Origin: Patescibacteria group bacterium
GTDB taxonomy: Bacteria; Patescibacteriota; Patescibacteriia; UBA1558; UBA10009
Assembly: GCA_041662565.1 (NCBI GenBank)
Contig: JBAZSE010000001.1
Coordinates: 193,084 to 257,083, forward strand
Direction: 5' to 3'
Length of the DNA: 64,000 nucleotides
The notes under the pieces were generated by a model. That model made no database searches. It was not told the DNA's origin and saw only the letters and a list, made by a program, of their open reading frames with translations. Below, piece after piece: positions 2,308-52,765 of this stretch (position 1 is the first letter of the stretch; each line of letters opens with the position of its first letter). A program made the translations under genes and the position numbers.

Positions 2308-2351
2308 GAAATGTTGTAGTGACAATTCATGAATTGTCACTACAACATTTC
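2308..2351 (+). promoter_or_regulatory. 44-bp perfect palindrome (22-bp arms, no spacer) in the ftsA leader
   Basis: gaaatgttgtagtgacaattca / tgaattgtcactacaacatttc are exact reverse complements. Confidence 0.7.
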
Positions 2352-2447: not shown

Positions 2448-3695
2448 ATGACTCAAGCTCAAATTATTACCGGTTTGGATATTGGTTCCAGCAACATTAG
2501 GGCCGTTGTTTTGCAGCAAACCCACGAAGGCGGTTGGCAAATTATTGGTGCCAGCGAACGCTTGGCCGAAGGCGTGGCCAAAGGCATGGTTACCAATATT
2601 GAAGATCTGGTTTCATCCATTTCCGAATGTTTGGAGCAGGCCGAAAGAATGACCGGATTACCAATCGAAAGAGCGGTCGTGGGCATGAATGGCACGCATA
2701 TTAAAACTTTGGAATCAACCGGCGTAGTGGCGGTGGCTAAAGCGGATAAAGAAATAACCGAAGAAGATGTCGAACGGGCGATTGAAGCGGCTCAAGCCGT
2801 GGCCACGCCGGCCAATTACGAAATTCTCCACGTTATTCCCAAGGACTTTACCATAGATGGCCAATCGGGCGTTAAAGATCCGGTAGGCATGACCGGCATT
2901 CGGCTGGAAGTGGCAACCCAAATTATTATGGGTTTATCTTCGCAGGTTAAAAATTTAACCAAATGTATCTACCGCACAGGGGTAGATATCAATGATGTGG
3001 TTTTTGGCGTATTGGCGGCAAGTGAAAGTACTTTGGTTAAAAAACAAAAAGAATTGGGCGTGGCTTTAGTTAATTTAGGCGCCCAAACAACAAGCTTGAT
3101 TGTTTATGAAGAAGGAGATGTTTTACATACTGCCGTACTGCCCATTGGCAGTAACCATATTACTGCCGATATTGCCATCGGTTTAAGGATTTCTATGGAA
3201 ACCGCCGAGGCCTTAAAACTAGAAATTGCCCAGGCCGATAGCTCCAAGGTTAATAAAAGAGATGAAATTGATTTGGCCAGATTTTCGGTCAACGAAAAAG
3301 AAAGAACAATGGTTTACGTTAAACAGATTGCCGAAATCGTTCAGGCCAGGGTAGAAGAAATTTTCAGTTTGATTGATAAGGAATTAAAAAAAATCAACCG
3401 TTCCGGTTTATTGCCCTCGGGCGTTGTTTTAACCGGGGGCGGGGCCAAGCTTCCCGGAATTTTAGAGCTAGGCAAAGAAAAATTAAAGTTGCCGGTGTTT
3501 GCCGGTTTTCCCTTGGGTTTGGAAAATAATGCCATTGATAAAGTTAATGATCCCAGTTATGCCACGGCTTTGGGCTTGGCTATTTGGGGAACTCAAGGGG
3601 CAGCTGCCAAACACGGTCTGCATTTGCCCTCTTTTTCTTCGGTTGATCAGGTTGTAGGAAAAATGAAAGATTGGTTTAAATCATTATTGCCTTAA
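2448..3695 (+). CDS. ftsA: Cell division protein FtsA
   Basis: ITGLDIGSSNIRAVV actin-fold N-terminus; 415 aa; immediately upstream of ftsZ. Confidence 0.9.
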   Translation: MTQAQIITGLDIGSSNIRAVVLQQTHEGGWQIIGASERLAEGVAKGMVTNIEDLVSSISECLEQAERMTGLPIERAVVGMNGTHIKTLESTGVVAVAKADKEITEEDVERAIEAAQAVATPANYEILHVIPKDFTIDGQSGVKDPVGMTGIRLEVATQIIMGLSSQVKNLTKCIYRTGVDINDVVFGVLAASESTLVKKQKELGVALVNLGAQTTSLIVYEEGDVLHTAVLPIGSNHITADIAIGLRISMETAEALKLEIAQADSSKVNKRDEIDLARFSVNEKERTMVYVKQIAEIVQARVEEIFSLIDKELKKINRSGLLPSGVVLTGGGAKLPGILELGKEKLKLPVFAGFPLGLENNAIDKVNDPSYATALGLAIWGTQGAAAKHGLHLPSFSSVDQVVGKMKDWFKSLLP

Positions 3696-3731: not shown

Positions 3732-4934
3732 ATGTCTATAAATGTCAAAGTCAAACCGATGGAAGTTAAGCCGGAAATGGAAACTTTCGCCAAAATTAAA
3801 GTTTTTGGCGTAGGTGGGTCCGGCGGTTCGGCCATTAATCGAATGATAAAATCCAAAATCAGAGGTGTGGATTTTATTGCGGTTAATACCGATGCCCAGG
3901 CCTTAAACAGTAATGCGGCGCCAAAAAAAGTCCATATCGGCAAAGGCACAACACGGGGTTTGGGCGCAGGCATGGATCCGGAAACCGGGGCTCAAGCGGC
4001 CGAAGAAGATGAAGATGAAATCAGATCGGCCATTCAGGGCGCTGATATGGTTTTTATCACTTGCGGTCTTGGTGGAGGCACTGGCACCGGTGCGGCGCCG
4101 ATTATTGCGGCCGCGGCCAGAGAGCTTGGTGCTTTAACCATTGCGGTAGTTACCAGGCCTTTTAGTTTTGAAGGCGCCCAGCGCCGGAGCATTGCCGAAA
4201 GGGGTTTGGATAAGTTAATTGATAAAGTTGATACCATTATTACCATTCCCAATGACCGTTTATTGCAAGTGATTGATAAAAAAACTTCCTTATTGGATGC
4301 GTTTGCCATTGTGGATGAGGTTTTAAAACAGGGCGTGCAGGGCATTTCGGAAATTATCACCATTCCGGGTTTAGTTAATGTGGATTTTGCCGATGTTAAA
4401 GCAATTATGAAAGATGCCGGCAGCGCTTTAATGGGCATTGGTCGCTCCAGCGGTGAAAATCGGGCAGTAGAAGCGGCCAGAGCCGCTATTGAAAGTCCGC
4501 TTTTGGAACTTTCCATCAAAGGCGCTAAAGGAGTATTGTTTACCATTACCGGCGGAACGGATCTAACCATGCATGAAGTAAACGAAGCGGCCGAAGTTAT
4601 AACATCTTCCATCGATTCCAATGCCAAAGTAATTTTTGGCGCCGTGATTGATGAATCTTTGAATTCGGAAGTGAAAATTACGGTTATTGCCACCGGCTTT
4701 AGTCCAAGCAACAGGGGAGAATCCGAAGTGGAAAGAATGCAAAAAGAAGATCGGCCTTTTACCGTTGTCCAGCCCGTTAACCAGCAATTGGAAGAAAGGC
4801 AGAATTTAGCGGCCAAAAATATTTTTTCCAAAAAGGGCAAAACCATAGAGCATAAACTGGAAGTGCCGGTTAAATCCAAAGAAGAAGAAGAATTGGAAGT
4901 TCCGGCTTTTATCAGAAGAAAGATGGGTAAATAA
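3732..4934 (+). CDS. ftsZ: Cell division GTPase FtsZ
   Basis: GGGTGTGAAPIIA tubulin signature; NTDAQAL; 400 aa. Confidence 0.95.
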   Translation: MSINVKVKPMEVKPEMETFAKIKVFGVGGSGGSAINRMIKSKIRGVDFIAVNTDAQALNSNAAPKKVHIGKGTTRGLGAGMDPETGAQAAEEDEDEIRSAIQGADMVFITCGLGGGTGTGAAPIIAAAARELGALTIAVVTRPFSFEGAQRRSIAERGLDKLIDKVDTIITIPNDRLLQVIDKKTSLLDAFAIVDEVLKQGVQGISEIITIPGLVNVDFADVKAIMKDAGSALMGIGRSSGENRAVEAARAAIESPLLELSIKGAKGVLFTITGGTDLTMHEVNEAAEVITSSIDSNAKVIFGAVIDESLNSEVKITVIATGFSPSNRGESEVERMQKEDRPFTVVQPVNQQLEERQNLAAKNIFSKKGKTIEHKLEVPVKSKEEEELEVPAFIRRKMGK

Positions 4935-4942
4935 TTTAACCT

Positions 4943-5422
4943 ATGCGTTGCCCGGTTTGTTTAACTCAAGATACTAAGGTAACCGATTCCCGGTTGGCGG
5001 AAGAAGCTTTTGTTATTAAAAGGCGTCGGGAATGTTATAGATGTGGCTTTAGATTTTCCACCTATGAACAGATGGAAATCCTTAACTTAACGGTAGTTAA
5101 AAGAACGGGCAACAAAGAGCCCTACTTGCGTGAAAAATTGGAATCAGGTTTAAAAAAATCTTTGGAAAAAAGGCCCTACACCCAGGATAATTTTAAAAAA
5201 TTAGTTAGCACCATTGAGCGCGATATCCAAAAAAGAAAGCAAGATGAAATTACCACTTCGGAAATCGGCGAAATAGTCATGAAACGGCTGAAACTTTTCG
5301 ATAAAGTGGCTTACATCAGGTTTGCTTCCGTTTACCGAGCCTTTGAGGATGTAAAAACTTTTCAAAAGGAATTAAACAGCTTACTAAAATCTCCAGCGGC
5401 TTTAAAAAGCAAGAAAAGATAA
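4943..5422 (+). CDS. nrdR: Transcriptional repressor NrdR (zinc ribbon plus ATP-cone)
   Basis: MRCPVCLTQDTKVTDSR...CYRCGFRF zinc ribbon followed by an ATP-cone; 159 aa. Confidence 0.9.
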   Translation: MRCPVCLTQDTKVTDSRLAEEAFVIKRRRECYRCGFRFSTYEQMEILNLTVVKRTGNKEPYLREKLESGLKKSLEKRPYTQDNFKKLVSTIERDIQKRKQDEITTSEIGEIVMKRLKLFDKVAYIRFASVYRAFEDVKTFQKELNSLLKSPAALKSKKR

Positions 5423-11343: not shown

Positions 11344-12717
11344 ATGGATAAATTATTTTTGTACAACACATTAACCCGCCAAAAGCAGGAATTTATCCCT
11401 TTAAAAAAGGGTAAAGTTGGTTTATACACTTGCGGGCCCACAGTTTATAATTTTGCCCATATCGGCAATTTGCGTACTTATATTTTTGAAGATATTTTGC
11501 GTCGGGTTTTGGAATACAATAAATACAAAGTTAAGCAGGTTATGAACATTACCGATGTTGGCCATTTAACTTCCGATTCCGATACCGGTGAGGATAAACT
11601 GGAAAAAGGTTCTGCCAGAGAAGGAAAATCCGTTTGGGAAATTGCCGAGTTTTATACCAAGGCCTTTCGTCAGGATTTGAAAAATTTGAATATCCAGGAA
11701 CCTGATAAATGGATTAAGGCAACCGAGACGATTAAAGAGCAAATTGATTTTGTTAAAAAGTTGGAGAAAAAAGGTTTAACTTATAAAACTTCCGACGGAA
11801 TTTATTTTGATACTGCCAGGTATATTGATTACCCTCATCTTGCCAAACTTAATTTAGCCGGACAACAAGAAGGCAGTCGGGTGGAAATAAATAATGAAAA
11901 AAAGAATCCGACCGATTTTGCGCTGTGGAAATTTTCGCCAAAAGATTCTACAAGACAGATGGAATGGAAATCGCCGTGGGGCGTTGGTTGGCCGGGCTGG
12001 CATTTGGAATGTTCGGCTATTAGCATTAAAGCACTGGGCAAGGAATTTGATATTCATACAGGAGGCATTGATCATATTCCCGTGCATCATACCAATGAGC
12101 GCGCGCAAAATTGGGGTTTGTTGGGCCAAGAAGCTGTTAGATATTGGTTGCATGGCGAATTTTTGGTAATCAACCAAGAAAAAATGGCAAAATCAGAAGG
12201 TAATTTTATTACTATCCAGTCCCTTAAAGATAAAGGCATTAATCCTTTGGCTTACAGATACTTTTGTTTGCAAGCGCATTACCGATCCAAACTGAATTTT
12301 AACTGGGAAGCGTTGCAGGCCGCGCAAAATGGTTATAATAATTTAATTAAAGAAATTTCAACTTTGGAAAAACCAAAAGGGGATTGTTTTGAATTTGAAG
12401 CCAAATTTACTCAAGCTATTAATGATGATTTAAATATGCCCGAGGCCCTGGCGATTGTTCAAAAATTATTAAAGTCGGATAATCCTTCATCGGCTAAAAG
12501 GGCTTCAATTATCAAATTTGACAAAGTTTTGGGCTTGGGGTTAAATACTTATAAAGTTGCCACTAAGATCAGTCCGGAAATTCAGCTATTAATAAATGCC
12601 AGACAAGAGGCCAGAAAAAATCAAGATTGGCACAAGTCGGATGAGTTAAGAAAAAAAATTGAAGATCAGGGGATTAAAATTCAGGATTTGTCTGATGGCG
12701 GGTATGAAATAGAGTAG
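11344..12717 (+). CDS. cysS: Cysteinyl-tRNA synthetase
   Basis: HIGNLRTY (HIGH motif), KMAKSEGN (KMSKS motif), CGPTVYN zinc site; 457 aa. Confidence 0.9.
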   Translation: MDKLFLYNTLTRQKQEFIPLKKGKVGLYTCGPTVYNFAHIGNLRTYIFEDILRRVLEYNKYKVKQVMNITDVGHLTSDSDTGEDKLEKGSAREGKSVWEIAEFYTKAFRQDLKNLNIQEPDKWIKATETIKEQIDFVKKLEKKGLTYKTSDGIYFDTARYIDYPHLAKLNLAGQQEGSRVEINNEKKNPTDFALWKFSPKDSTRQMEWKSPWGVGWPGWHLECSAISIKALGKEFDIHTGGIDHIPVHHTNERAQNWGLLGQEAVRYWLHGEFLVINQEKMAKSEGNFITIQSLKDKGINPLAYRYFCLQAHYRSKLNFNWEALQAAQNGYNNLIKEISTLEKPKGDCFEFEAKFTQAINDDLNMPEALAIVQKLLKSDNPSSAKRASIIKFDKVLGLGLNTYKVATKISPEIQLLINARQEARKNQDWHKSDELRKKIEDQGIKIQDLSDGGYEIE

Positions 12718-21490: not shown

Positions 21491-21567
21491 TGGTCGGGGT
21501 AGCGGGATTTGAACCCACGACCTCACGCACCCCATGCGTGCGCGCTAGCCAACTGCGCTATACCCCG
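21491..21567 (-). tRNA. tRNA-Pro (anticodon GGG) with encoded CCA
   Basis: Manual cloverleaf: CGGGGTA-TA-GCGC-AGTTGGCTA-GCGC-G-CACGC-ATGGGGT-GCGTG-AGGTC-GTGGG-TTCAAAT-CCCGC-TACCCCG-A-CCA. Confidence 0.8.
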
Positions 21568-29454: not shown

Positions 29455-29483
29455 TAGATAAAGATAACAAATTGAATTTTAGC

Positions 29484-29520
29484 AGGCCGATGCCTTAAGG
29501 CATCGGCCTGTTTGTTTTTT
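29484..29520 (+). terminator. Strong rho-independent terminator after fusA
   Basis: AGGCCGATGCC-TTAA-GGCATCGGCCT plus a T-rich tail. Confidence 0.8.
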
Positions 29521-32312: not shown

Positions 32313-32435
32313 GGGGCAGGCAGAATTAAATTATTTTTTCGCTCGCATAACTCGCTTGCCCGACTACGCCTTCGGCTTGTCGGTCTTAGCTCAAACAGAT
32401 CCTCGCTTCAAAAATAATTTAATTCTGCCTGCCCC
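32313..32435 (+). repeat. 26-bp perfect inverted repeat flanking a 70-nt spacer, immediately upstream of copA
   Basis: ggggcaggcagaattaaattatttttt ... aaaaataatttaattctgcctgcccc; spacer contains CCGAC..GTCGG. Confidence 0.7.
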
Positions 32436-42553: not shown

Positions 42554-42600
42554 AACAGGGTCAAACAGCTATTATTAATGGCTTTGGCCTTTTTTTATTA
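42554..42600 (+). repeat. AAACAGGGTCAA element copy C (left copy of a 45-bp direct repeat), preceded by TTGACA-N16-TAAAAT
   Basis: aaacagggtcaaacagctattattaatggctttggcctttttttatta. Confidence 0.7.
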
Positions 42601-42670
42601 ACGACGTAGAGCGAGAGAAGCGAAAAGGTAATCTTTTCGCTTCCGAGCCGAGGAGTTAATATGTAATCAT

Positions 42671-42976
42671 ATGAAAATACAGATTTTGCCAGCAGTCAAT
42701 CAATTTGTATTTTCTTTAGACGAATCAATTATAGCCAAAGTTTTAAGAACTATTGATTTATTGGAAAGATTCGGCAATCAATTACAATTACCTCACAGTA
42801 AATCAGTTGGCCACCGCCTGTTTGAGTTAAGAATTCACGGCCGTCAAGAAATCCGTATTTTTTATGGTTATTATGAAAACAGAGCAATTTTGCTTCATGG
42901 TTTAATTAAAAAATCCAATAAAATTCCAAAACATGAATTAAGTACAGCTTATAGTCGTTTTAAAGATTTGACATAG
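42671..42976 (+). CDS. HigB/RelE-like (Gp49 family) type II toxin
   Basis: LFELRI..RIFYGYY..ILLHGLIKKSNKIPKHE pattern; toxin precedes an XRE antitoxin. Confidence 0.65.
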   Translation: MKIQILPAVNQFVFSLDESIIAKVLRTIDLLERFGNQLQLPHSKSVGHRLFELRIHGRQEIRIFYGYYENRAILLHGLIKKSNKIPKHELSTAYSRFKDLT

Positions 42977-43039
42977 TATAACATATACGTTATAATTGGC
43001 AATGAGTGAGGAGAGAAAATTTATTTTCTCTCCAAACGA

Positions 43040-43345
43040 ATGAACCAATTATATAAAATATACTTATTTTATATGGAATCCTATAAAAATTTTAAAAACA
43101 AGCTGTTAAAGAATCCAAATATTAAAAAGGCCTATGATGAATTAGGGCCTGAATTTGCCGTTATTCGGATGATTATAGCTAAAAGGCTCGCCGCTGGGCT
43201 TACCCAAACTCAGTTGGCTAAAAAATTGGGCACCAAGCAATCGGCTATTTCACGTCTGGAACAGGGATCGGCTAATCCATCCCTGGCTTTATTGGTTAAA
43301 CTTTCCAAAGCCCTTAATGCCAAGCTGGAAATTTCCATTTCTTAA
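43040..43345 (+). CDS. HigA-like XRE-family HTH antitoxin
   Basis: LTQTQLAKKLGTKQSAISRLEQG helix-turn-helix. Confidence 0.7.
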   Translation: MNQLYKIYLFYMESYKNFKNKLLKNPNIKKAYDELGPEFAVIRMIIAKRLAAGLTQTQLAKKLGTKQSAISRLEQGSANPSLALLVKLSKALNAKLEISIS

Positions 43346-43573: not shown

Positions 43574-43688
43574 AGGGCCTTTTCAACCACGTTCCTATGC
43601 CGGTTGTCCCAGCCACGCCACCATCCGGTGACAGTTCGGAATACAGGTTTTTGTTTTTTTACGATATAATAACTTATTAACAGTGTCA

Positions 43689-49082: not shown

Positions 49083-49227
49083 TAAATATTTTTTATTTTA
49101 TAAAATTTTTCCCTTTCTGTGGGATTTTTTATTTTCTTGATCCCCCTCTAAAATCATGCTATAATTCCTAAACAATTTAAATAAATTTGGCCTAAACTCT
49201 AGCTATTGCTGGGGCATGGTATAAAAT

Positions 49228-49325
49228 CGTTGAACACATCCAACCCGTCATTCAGGGCGTGTTCAACGTTGCGTAGGGAAACTTACGTAAGGCCCGCAAG
49301 GGCCTCCTGGTGGCGGGTTTTGTGT
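49228..49325 (+). other. GC-rich structured element (10-bp IR, GNRA hairpin GGCCC-GCAA-GGGCC, terminator-like CCCGC..GCGGGTTTT) in the leader of ORF 49370
   Basis: cgttgaacac..gtgttcaacg; ggcccgcaagggcc; gcgggtttt read directly. Confidence 0.4.
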
Positions 49326-52574: not shown

Positions 52575-52765
52575 GCACACAAAAGGGCCTGCCCCGACTT
52601 CGCTTTAGCGAACTTCGTGGCTAATGTTAGTAAAGTGGGGATAGAGCAATTTTATTTAAGATATAAAATGGCTTGTCTTAAATCTTACAAAGTTCAATTT
52701 TATGGCTAATATTAGCCATAAATTAGTTTAAAAAGCAAAATTAAATCAATAGTGGTCAGGGGTAC

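Follow-up and report, generated by a model that had tools for sequence, protein, structure and literature searches.

A 44-bp palindrome upstream of ftsA in a Patescibacteria genome: the probable lengthened tip of a small foldback insertion element

The ybeY-ftsA intergenic region

We describe here a 64-kb stretch of DNA (the window) from a metagenome-assembled Patescibacteria genome near Komeilibacteria, and in particular a perfect 44-bp palindrome between ybeY and ftsA, upstream of the latter, which is probably the extended tip of a small foldback insertion element. The surrounding genes were assigned with Pfam and are as follows.

1821-2222: ybeY
2448-3695, + strand: ftsA
3732-4934, + strand: ftsZ, after ftsA
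4943-5422, + strand: nrdR, directly downstream of ftsZ

The gene order ybeY, ftsA, ftsZ, nrdR is conserved in relatives. The last three genes form an apparent operon, and the same arrangement is seen in L005, L006 and L001.

The palindrome lies at 2308-2351 and consists of the abutting arms GAAATGTTGTAGTGACAATTCA and TGAATTGTCACTACAACATTTC, in which all 22 positions are complementary; the flanking bases (A at 2307 and G at 2352) do not extend the pairing. An earlier note on this DNA had reported 22-nt arms with zero mismatches and no spacer, which direct reading bears out, and had called the palindrome far beyond chance, which is also correct, the longest spacerless arm in 100 dinucleotide-preserving shuffles of the window being 7-13 nt. 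Two details of that description are amended. The site had been placed in the ftsA-ftsZ leader and is between ybeY and ftsA, not between ftsA and ftsZ; and it does have a TATAAT box upstream (2289-2294), although it starts 13 nt after this box rather than about 14.

We examined whether the palindrome is genuine in two independent SRA samples, whose Logan contigs (k=31) carry identical ybeY and ftsA genes, with all overlapping bases identical. The contigs on the ybeY side (L003, L004) stop at 2337 and those on the ftsA side (L001, L002) begin at 2322, and over 30 nt these two kinds of contig end are reverse complements of each other. This is where a de Bruijn graph with k=31 must break at a palindrome spanning 2308-2351, and the palindrome and its boundaries are therefore present in both samples. 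Fold-back chimeras and similar assembly or amplification artefacts typically give spacerless perfect palindromes, and the public k=31 contigs do break here. However, the break points match a real palindrome in both samples, each arm runs into a different unique flank, an 809-kb contig spans the palindrome, and other species carry homologous hairpins at the same place, such that the probability of an artefact is negligible. Contig ends that are mutually reverse-complementary over 30 nt are also usable to detect perfect palindromes of at least 31 bp in Logan data.

The ftsA promoter and the foldback

Upstream of the palindrome there is a sigma-70-type promoter (TTGCCT-17-TATAAT; scan score 10/12) that ends at 2294, and its -35 and -10 boxes and their spacing are conserved in all 12 relatives examined. 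The palindrome forms the apical helix of a foldback with four helices (P1-P4), whose features, together with those of the promoter, are listed below.

2266-2271, + strand: -35 box TTGCCT of the resident ftsA promoter (promoter scan, 17-nt spacer; conserved in relatives)
2289-2294, + strand: -10 box TATAAT, in which the resident TA (2289-2290) is joined to the first four bases of the element, TAAT (comparison of filled and empty sites)
2291-2376, + strand: foldback element of 86 nt, comprising P1-P4 and the 7-nt tail CACACAG, with TA at 2289-2290 and 2377-2378 on either side; 69.8 bits with model R2
2291-2297, + strand: left arm of P1, TAATTAG, paired with 2363-2369 in minimum-free-energy folds
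2300-2305, + strand: GTGAGG, Shine-Dalgarno-like, comprising the left side of P2 (2300-2301), an invariant GA loop (2302-2303) and the left side of P3 (2304-2305)
2308-2351, strand not assigned: apical stem P4, the 44-bp palindrome; as RNA, 20 bp with a CAUG loop, -26.7 kcal/mol
2354-2359, + strand: CCGAAC, comprising the right side of P3 (2354-2355), an invariant GA loop (2356-2357) and the right side of P2 (2358-2359)
2363-2369, + strand: right arm of P1, CTAATTA, with an alternative partner at 2379-2385
2377-2385, + strand: displaced resident -10 box and next bases, TATAATTAG; L089 has TCTAATTAA here

The element at ftsA in related genomes

FtsA identities give the tree (window,(L089,(L010,L007))), with L005 and L011 outside. 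Both L089 and L010 (each with FtsA 87% identical to that of the window) carry the module, and their sequences after the -10 box are TATAATTAGTAGTGAGGAA-(GACAAGAAAG CTTG CTTGCTTGTC)-GACCGAACGCCCTAATTATACACAGTCTAATTAA and TATAATTAGGAGTGAGAGA-(GAAAAGAAAG CTTG CTTTCTTTTC)-AATCGAACGAGTAATTACACGAAGTATAATTAG respectively, with the stem-loop in parentheses. The stems are 10 bp with a CTTG loop and occupy 24 nt, versus 44 nt in the window, and the flanks are kept at the same place. Stem identity to the window is 18/44 in L089 and 19/44 in L010, and flank identity is 84-100% and 79-84%. The comparison with L089 is the most telling: the left flank is identical at 19 of 19 positions and the right at 31 of 34 (50/53 together), versus 49/110 in the leader further downstream and 59% at ftsA third codon positions. 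From this sequence comparison it appears that the flanks are under purifying selection, and that the stem keeps its pairing only and not its sequence.

In L007, the sister of L010 with 95% FtsA identity, the whole module is cleanly absent between TATAATTA repeats. The empty site in L007 reads ...TTAT-TATAATTATG... and the filled site in L010 reads ...TTAT-TA-(TAATTAGG...GTAATTA CACGAAG)-TA-TAATTAGG..., such that the L010 sequence is that of L007 plus the module. The module is also absent from ftsA in L005 and in L011-L019.

Several of the more distant relatives have ftsA leaders of other kinds, as read by eye. There are unrelated inverted repeats just after the ftsA -10 box in L014 (about 2330-2500), L013, L016 (e.g. 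GAAATTAGAAAC...GTTTCTTATTTC) and L018, and the leaders of L012 and L017 are very short.

A paralogue between higB-like and higA-like genes

A covariance model (R1) was built from the three ftsA modules only, with the apex of the window copy trimmed. Searched unfiltered against the whole window, it matched 42997-43058 (46.1 bits, E=1.3e-7) in addition to the ftsA module; this copy was missed by BLAST with short words, which found no second copy of the module. The matched copy and a possible third foldback nearby are as follows.

42993-43058, + strand: paralogous copy of 66 nt, with hairpin GGAGAGAAAA-TTTA-TTTTCTCTCC; 93.5 bits with model R2
42596-42661, + strand: possible third foldback GAAGCGAAAAG-GTAAT-CTTTTCGCTTC, with AT-rich outer helix TATTAAC/GTTAATA; only 12.8 bits with model R2; fold z-score -4.2

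The genes on either side of the paralogue are Gp49/HigB-like (42671-42976) and XRE/HigA-like (43073-43345), and the promoter that immediately precedes it, in whose -10 box it is inserted, is a perfect TTGACA-17-TATAAT. The possible third foldback is just upstream of the higB-like start codon, and the orthologous loci L093, L102 and L098 lack it; a distant relationship to the ftsA element is possible, and its membership is uncertain. In a scan of the window for perfect hairpins, purine-rich 5' arms were found only in these three foldbacks. Immediately before the higA-like start codon (43073) there is also an inverted repeat, ATATAAAATA-TACT-TATTTTATAT at 43051-43074, which overlaps the element tail and the displaced -10 box and is a possible antitoxin operator.

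The four copies (three at ftsA and one at higA) align gap-free over 77 columns and have a common fold. P1, the outer helix, is 7 bp (TAATTRG/CYAATTA), subterminal on the right, with a single compensatory change, an A-T pair replaced by G-C in the higA copy (alignment columns 8/56); P2 and P3 are 2 bp each; and P4 is 10 bp with a tetraloop, except in the window ftsA copy, in which it is 20 bp. The helices are separated by 2-nt purine-rich internal loops, one of which has an invariant GA opposite GA, and another AA/GA or GA/AA. With these four sequences only, and with the window apex trimmed for alignment, 97.6% of the cells pair and both sides have changed in 11 of the 21 pairs; none of 500 shuffles reaches the observed values, and slid partners are 39-50% paired. 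Of these changes, those in P1, P2 and P3 and in the six pairs at the base of P4 are robust. Minimum-free-energy folds, done independently, give the same P1-P4 in both window copies, with z-scores of -9.8 and -7.6. The plus-strand scores with model R2 (93.5 and 69.8 bits) are far above the minus-strand scores (29 and 16 bits), and the conserved features are therefore strand-specific.

The strand asymmetry bears on the proposal that the palindrome, with P1 reaching the -10 box, extrudes as a DNA cruciform under negative supercoiling and modulates the promoter. A spacerless perfect palindrome is the best substrate for cruciform formation, the foldback reaches the -10 region at 2291-2297, and all of the pairs are Watson-Crick, as DNA requires. 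However, the stems of the orthologues and of the paralogue are only 10 bp, with loops of 4 nt, which makes them poor cruciform formers; the strand-asymmetric conservation of the loops fits a single-stranded reading, and a CUUG tetraloop on a closing G-C pair is known for stabilising RNA. We consider a cruciform switch very improbable.

The short form of the element (about 66 nt, with a 10-bp stem and tetraloop) is common to L089, L010 and the higA paralogue, and is therefore ancestral. The window ftsA copy retains the six basal pairs of P4 (GAAATG/CATTTC, versus GAAAAG/CTTTTC and GACAAG/CTTGTC elsewhere, with two compensatory swaps), and the upper 12 nt of the stem have been replaced by a perfect 32-nt palindrome, with a change in predicted hairpin stability from about -12 kcal/mol in the short form to about -32 kcal/mol. 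The perfect symmetry of the replacement suggests that it was templated by DNA, through template switching or hairpin-primed repair, for example.

Other identities for the foldback were considered and rejected. It does not have the form of an intrinsic terminator or attenuator, as there is no U-tract (GACCGAACGCCC follows on the plus strand and CTTCCTCAC on the minus) and the terminator scan makes no call. A leader peptide is likewise rejected, because the mini open reading frames (GTG-AGG-AAG... in the ftsA copies, ATG-AGT-GAG... in the higA copy) have no conserved frame, length or sequence. There is no match to the element in Rfam at gathering thresholds, and permissive filters gave only generic miRNA-precursor hairpin models (16-26 bits, versus thresholds of 55-200).

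Insertion into -10 boxes

The higA locus provides a second comparison of filled and empty sites. Between orthologous loci (HigA 91-92% identical) the intergenic distance is 40 nt in L093-L107 and 96 nt in the window; the empty site reads ...CGT-TATACT-GATTTC..., and the window ...CGT-TA-(TAATTGG...CCAATTA TATAAAA)-TA-TACTTAT.... Presence or absence with clean boundaries at orthologous sites is thus seen at both ftsA and higA, and both junctions read TA-(TAATTRG...7-nt tail)-TA-TA(A/C)T. In each case the insertion splits the resident -10 hexamer after position 2 (TA^TAAT at ftsA, TA^TACT at higA). The TAAT with which the element starts restores TATAAT and leaves the 17-nt distance to the resident -35 box unchanged, and at higA it improves on TATACT, while the displaced resident box comes after the 7-nt tail at both loci. 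Insertion with displacement of the box also accounts for a direct repeat of TATAATTAGTA with 88-nt spacing at ftsA (2289-2299 and 2377-2387). TA is present on both sides of both insertions, and TATAATTAG around that at ftsA; two bases could match by chance, and the longer repeat overlaps the end of the element.

The second TATAAT-like box at ftsA has decayed to TCTAAT in L089, from which it follows that the upstream box (2289-2294) is the working -10. A second promoter at 2377-2382 is rejected, because this box has no -35 partner and is TCTAAT in L089.

The copies are 65-86 nt and have no coding capacity, the mini-frames varying in frame and length among them. A paralogue at an unrelated locus, with both copies inserted, indicates a mobile origin and not an invention specific to ftsAZ. 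The earlier note had reasoned that membership in a dispersed repeat at many unrelated loci would point to a mobile or REP element; in its exact form the palindrome occurs only once, but the foldback of which it is the tip has a paralogue at the unrelated higB/higA locus, and both are insertions. The exact arm has no other occurrence in the window at ≤3 mismatches, and it was not found in the species-representative genomes, metagenome contigs and viral contigs scanned except for one 20-mer in a metagenome contig (L009), which we regard as a chance match, being one arm by itself in an unrelated contig where there are hardly any open reading frames. Degenerate patterns for the module had no match in the viral contigs. 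A dispersed exact repeat is therefore rejected, the second copy having been found only by a structure-aware model.

Comparison with known foldback and repeat families

The closest parallel is with the Correia elements of Neisseria (CREE or NEMIS), small non-coding foldbacks that insert at TA and vary in presence or absence between strains (PMC2649163, PMC10969869). Their ends create or carry sigma-70 -10 and -35 boxes, and the elements are often between a promoter and its gene (PMC2649163, PMC10969869); when transcribed they fold into long hairpins that are cleaved or bound by RNase III (PMC10969869). The ftsA element is similar in its TA insertion, promoter-forming ends, position between promoter and gene, and hairpin. 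Correia elements have ends TATAG[CT]GGATTAAC..., are 104-157 bp with 26-bp terminal repeats and often an IHF site, and are present in more than 100 copies per genome (PMC2649163). The ftsA element, in contrast, has no sequence similarity to them; its ends are TAATTRG and YAYRMAR, its length is 66-86 nt, its outer helix is 7 bp, its purine loops are conserved and asymmetric, and a tail of 7 nt extends beyond the right repeat. Only 2-3 copies were seen, and both of the sure insertions are inside a -10 hexamer. Membership in the Correia family is rejected, as the terminal consensus and the 104-157 bp core are not found.

ERIC, RUP, BOX and REP/REPIN sequences are alike in being intergenic, co-transcribed, non-coding hairpins that alter the stability of neighbouring mRNAs. 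Unlike the ftsA element, these are high-copy families with a recognisable consensus, and REP sequences have a GTAG head and a cognate RAYT transposase. No consensus of any of the four is evident in the element sequence, these families not having been specifically tested. Small foldback insertion elements are a known class, of which we regard the object as a new member with few copies; its unusual features are the insertion into and rebuilding of -10 boxes, and its apparent domestication before ftsAZ. A search of PMC open-access and bioRxiv found no paper on miniature mobile elements in Patescibacteria.

The palindrome as an operator, and an upstream dyad

The earlier note had suggested an operator for a dimeric regulator of the division genes, and in its specific form a dimeric transcription factor would bind the 44-bp palindrome (centred at about +28 from the start) and repress ftsAZ as a roadblock. 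The perfect dyad symmetry and the overlap with the early transcribed region are in keeping with this, and the arms hold nested TTGT-N4-ACAA and ACA-N10-TGT sub-palindromes. The comparison of orthologues is not: an operator would keep its contact bases, but here the flanks are kept while the stem differs in sequence and length, sharing only its first and last few bases with the window stem, and pairing alone is maintained through compensatory changes. The copies or half-sites that the note had proposed to look for did not emerge as regulon-like sites, with no second site or half-site in the window (≤3 mismatches) and the arm unmatched in the genome, metagenome and viral collections scanned apart from the lone L009 20-mer. 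Palindromic operators of dimeric repressors, such as those of LexA, CRP/FNR-type proteins and NrdR boxes, also have dyad symmetry close to a promoter, but these are 12-20 bp, with contact bases conserved across orthologous promoters, whereas this palindrome is far longer than known operators and its sequence has been replaced between species with pairing kept. A different and truly conserved palindrome is present upstream. We consider the operator reading not supported and highly unlikely to be correct.

Two more specific sites are also rejected. An NrdR box was considered because nrdR follows ftsZ, but the central 16-mer agrees with the consensus at 10/16 positions and misses the key C/G positions, and the orthologues do not have it. 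A dif/Xer site or hairpin-telomere resolution site is not consistent with orthologous sequence that is not conserved and flanks that differ.

The upstream palindrome is a dyad, GAACA-N7-TGTTC, at 2228-2244, about 25 nt upstream of the -35 box and followed by the conserved sequence GTGGAAAAG. One site is present upstream of ftsA in L005-L008, L010-L013, L015, L016, L018-L021 and L089-L092; it occurs exactly once per ftsA locus, even at about 50% FtsA identity, with half-sites conserved and a variable spacer. There is one other near-match in the window, at 11544-11560 with 1 mismatch. Judged by this sequence conservation the dyad is a much stronger candidate than the 44-bp palindrome for an operator of the division genes. 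Striking as it is, the palindrome is not the control site that has been conserved, and the dyad is the place to look for a division-gene regulator.

A predicted 5' stem-loop of the ftsA-ftsZ mRNA

Positioned from the -10 box, transcription is predicted to start at about 2301-2303, about 7 nt after the box, with the stem beginning about 6 nt later and ending 97 nt before the ftsA start codon. This distance makes direct occlusion of the ribosome-binding site unlikely. We propose that in an ancestor of the Komeilibacteria-related clade a copy of the element entered between positions 2 and 3 of the conserved ftsA -10 box (TA^TAAT), and that its 5' end, TAATTRG, rebuilt a perfect TATAAT 17 nt from the resident -35. 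Transcription would then start inside the element, and the ftsA-ftsZ mRNA would open with about 6 nt of Shine-Dalgarno-like sequence (GAGGAA) and then the P4 hairpin, followed by CCGAACG and a second small hairpin in which CUAAUUA is paired with the displaced box. Read-through transcripts from ybeY would hold the full P1-P4 foldback. Selection on the flanks and on pairing, and not on stem sequence, would suggest action through structure rather than as a protein operator. In the window lineage the stem has grown from 10 bp to a perfect 20-bp RNA duplex (22 complementary pairs in DNA), and the most likely effect would be on mRNA fate, with the 5' end protected or a substrate for a double-strand-specific RNase created.

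There are precedents for such a layout. Stabilising 5' stem-loops are known in the E. coli ompA leader, the B. subtilis aprE leader and the B. thuringiensis cry3A STAB-SD, and a stable hairpin a few nucleotides from the 5' end of an mRNA is the arrangement by which RNase E or RNase J is kept from starting decay at that end. In addition, RNase III classically acts on perfect duplexes about 20 bp long. A parallel is offered by transcribed Correia elements, whose hairpins are RNase III substrates (PMC10969869). The predicted ftsA leader would resemble those of ompA, aprE and STAB-SD in having a hairpin near its 5' end, after a Shine-Dalgarno-like GAGGA and 97 nt from the start codon; unlike it, these are not known to be mobile insertions, and their stems are much shorter than 20 bp. 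A stable 5' stem-loop in the ftsAZ mRNA, which the earlier note had offered as the other possibility, is on this predicted arrangement plausible, and we favour it over an operator.

The principal rival to an RNA role is that the element is a selfish remnant with no host function, a decaying insertion resembling a miniature inverted-repeat transposable element (MITE) that is tolerated because it rebuilt the -10 box, with the palindrome a neutral product of template switching or hairpin-templated repair that made the arms symmetrical. Both copies are indeed insertions, and L007 has lost the ftsA copy cleanly between the TATAATTA repeats while the flanks in its sister L010 are the most diverged, which suggests that it is dispensable there; 22 of 22 perfect pairs with no wobble also fit a DNA-templated origin. 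However, the flanks of the window and L089 are identical at 50 of 53 positions, as compared with 59% at ftsA third codon positions and 45% in the adjacent leader. Moreover, templated symmetrisation would pair the loops too, and neither the invariant GA/GA loops nor the compensatory changes in P2 and P3 would be expected. We regard a functionless remnant as unlikely, though not very much so.

Our preferred reading is that the palindrome is the lengthened tip (P4) of a low-copy MITE-like foldback insertion element, kept at ftsA as the 5' stem-loop of the mRNA, and we consider this probable as a whole. The comparisons establish the insertion, the rebuilt -10 box, the kinship of the copies and the conserved structure; the transcription start, the role of the RNA and the way in which the element was mobilised are inferred. 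Our confidence in its parts differs: the anatomy of a foldback insertion is likely to be correct, and a role at the RNA level in mRNA fate, which builds on the predicted transcript, is tentative, at somewhat less than an even chance. Several observations weigh against this reading. The target duplication is ambiguous (TA, or up to 9 bp at ftsA), and because of the 7-nt tail beyond the inverted repeat on the right, the ends differ from classical terminal inverted repeats. In about 83 kb of the source genome no more than two clear copies and a doubtful third were found, with none by model R2 in the about 19 kb beyond the window (L108, L109), and in about 150 kb of relatives' loci R2 found the ftsA orthologues only. 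No transposase was identified, the window proteins not having been scanned for transposases. Four of the 11 compensatory pairs use the artificially trimmed window stem, the upper part of which may not be homologous, and with all stem pairs Watson-Crick and no G-U, selection at the RNA level and at the DNA level are indistinguishable. Conservation of the flanks could partly reflect promoter-proximal constraints. Finally, the transcription start is a prediction from the promoter, and the left arm of P1 overlaps the -10 box, such that transcripts from the promoter would lack it and only read-through from ybeY or higB would include it.

A bolder and rather doubtful extension is that Patescibacteria harbour an undescribed family of about 66-nt foldbacks that insert specifically at TA^TA of sigma-70 -10 boxes and regenerate the box, one copy of which was domesticated tens of millions of years ago or earlier and has since been the structured ftsA-ftsZ 5' leader, its stem grown to RNase III length. 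If this were true, the family would ride on strong promoters without killing them, and there would be a new post-transcriptional control point for cell division. If our preferred reading is right, the element is already an example of a mobile hairpin that targets and preserves promoters and is afterwards retained by the host before its most important division genes. Bacteria of the candidate phyla radiation have tiny genomes, and very little is known of the regulation of their cell division. The covariance model from this work is ready for finding further copies.

Other features of the window

Several other structured sequences were noted in the window. A perfect 26-nt inverted repeat at 32313-32435 (GGGGCAGGCAGAATTAAATTATTTTT and its complement) has 71 nt between its arms, including an inner GC-rich hairpin; it is intergenic, upstream of a gene whose product begins with a heavy-metal-binding motif (GMHCASCS), and could be another foldback element or a structured RNA. 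Two RNAs are above Rfam gathering thresholds, a LOOT RNA at 49189-49305 (+ strand, 79 bits) and a DUF3800-IX RNA at 43581-43649 (- strand, 54 bits), the latter adjoining the toxin-antitoxin cluster. A tRNA-Pro is present at 21491-21567 (- strand). There are two other perfect spacerless palindromes, both intergenic, at 52699-52722 (12-nt arms) and 29483-29510 (14-nt arms); the second of these is GC-rich and followed by a T-run, and is probably a terminator.

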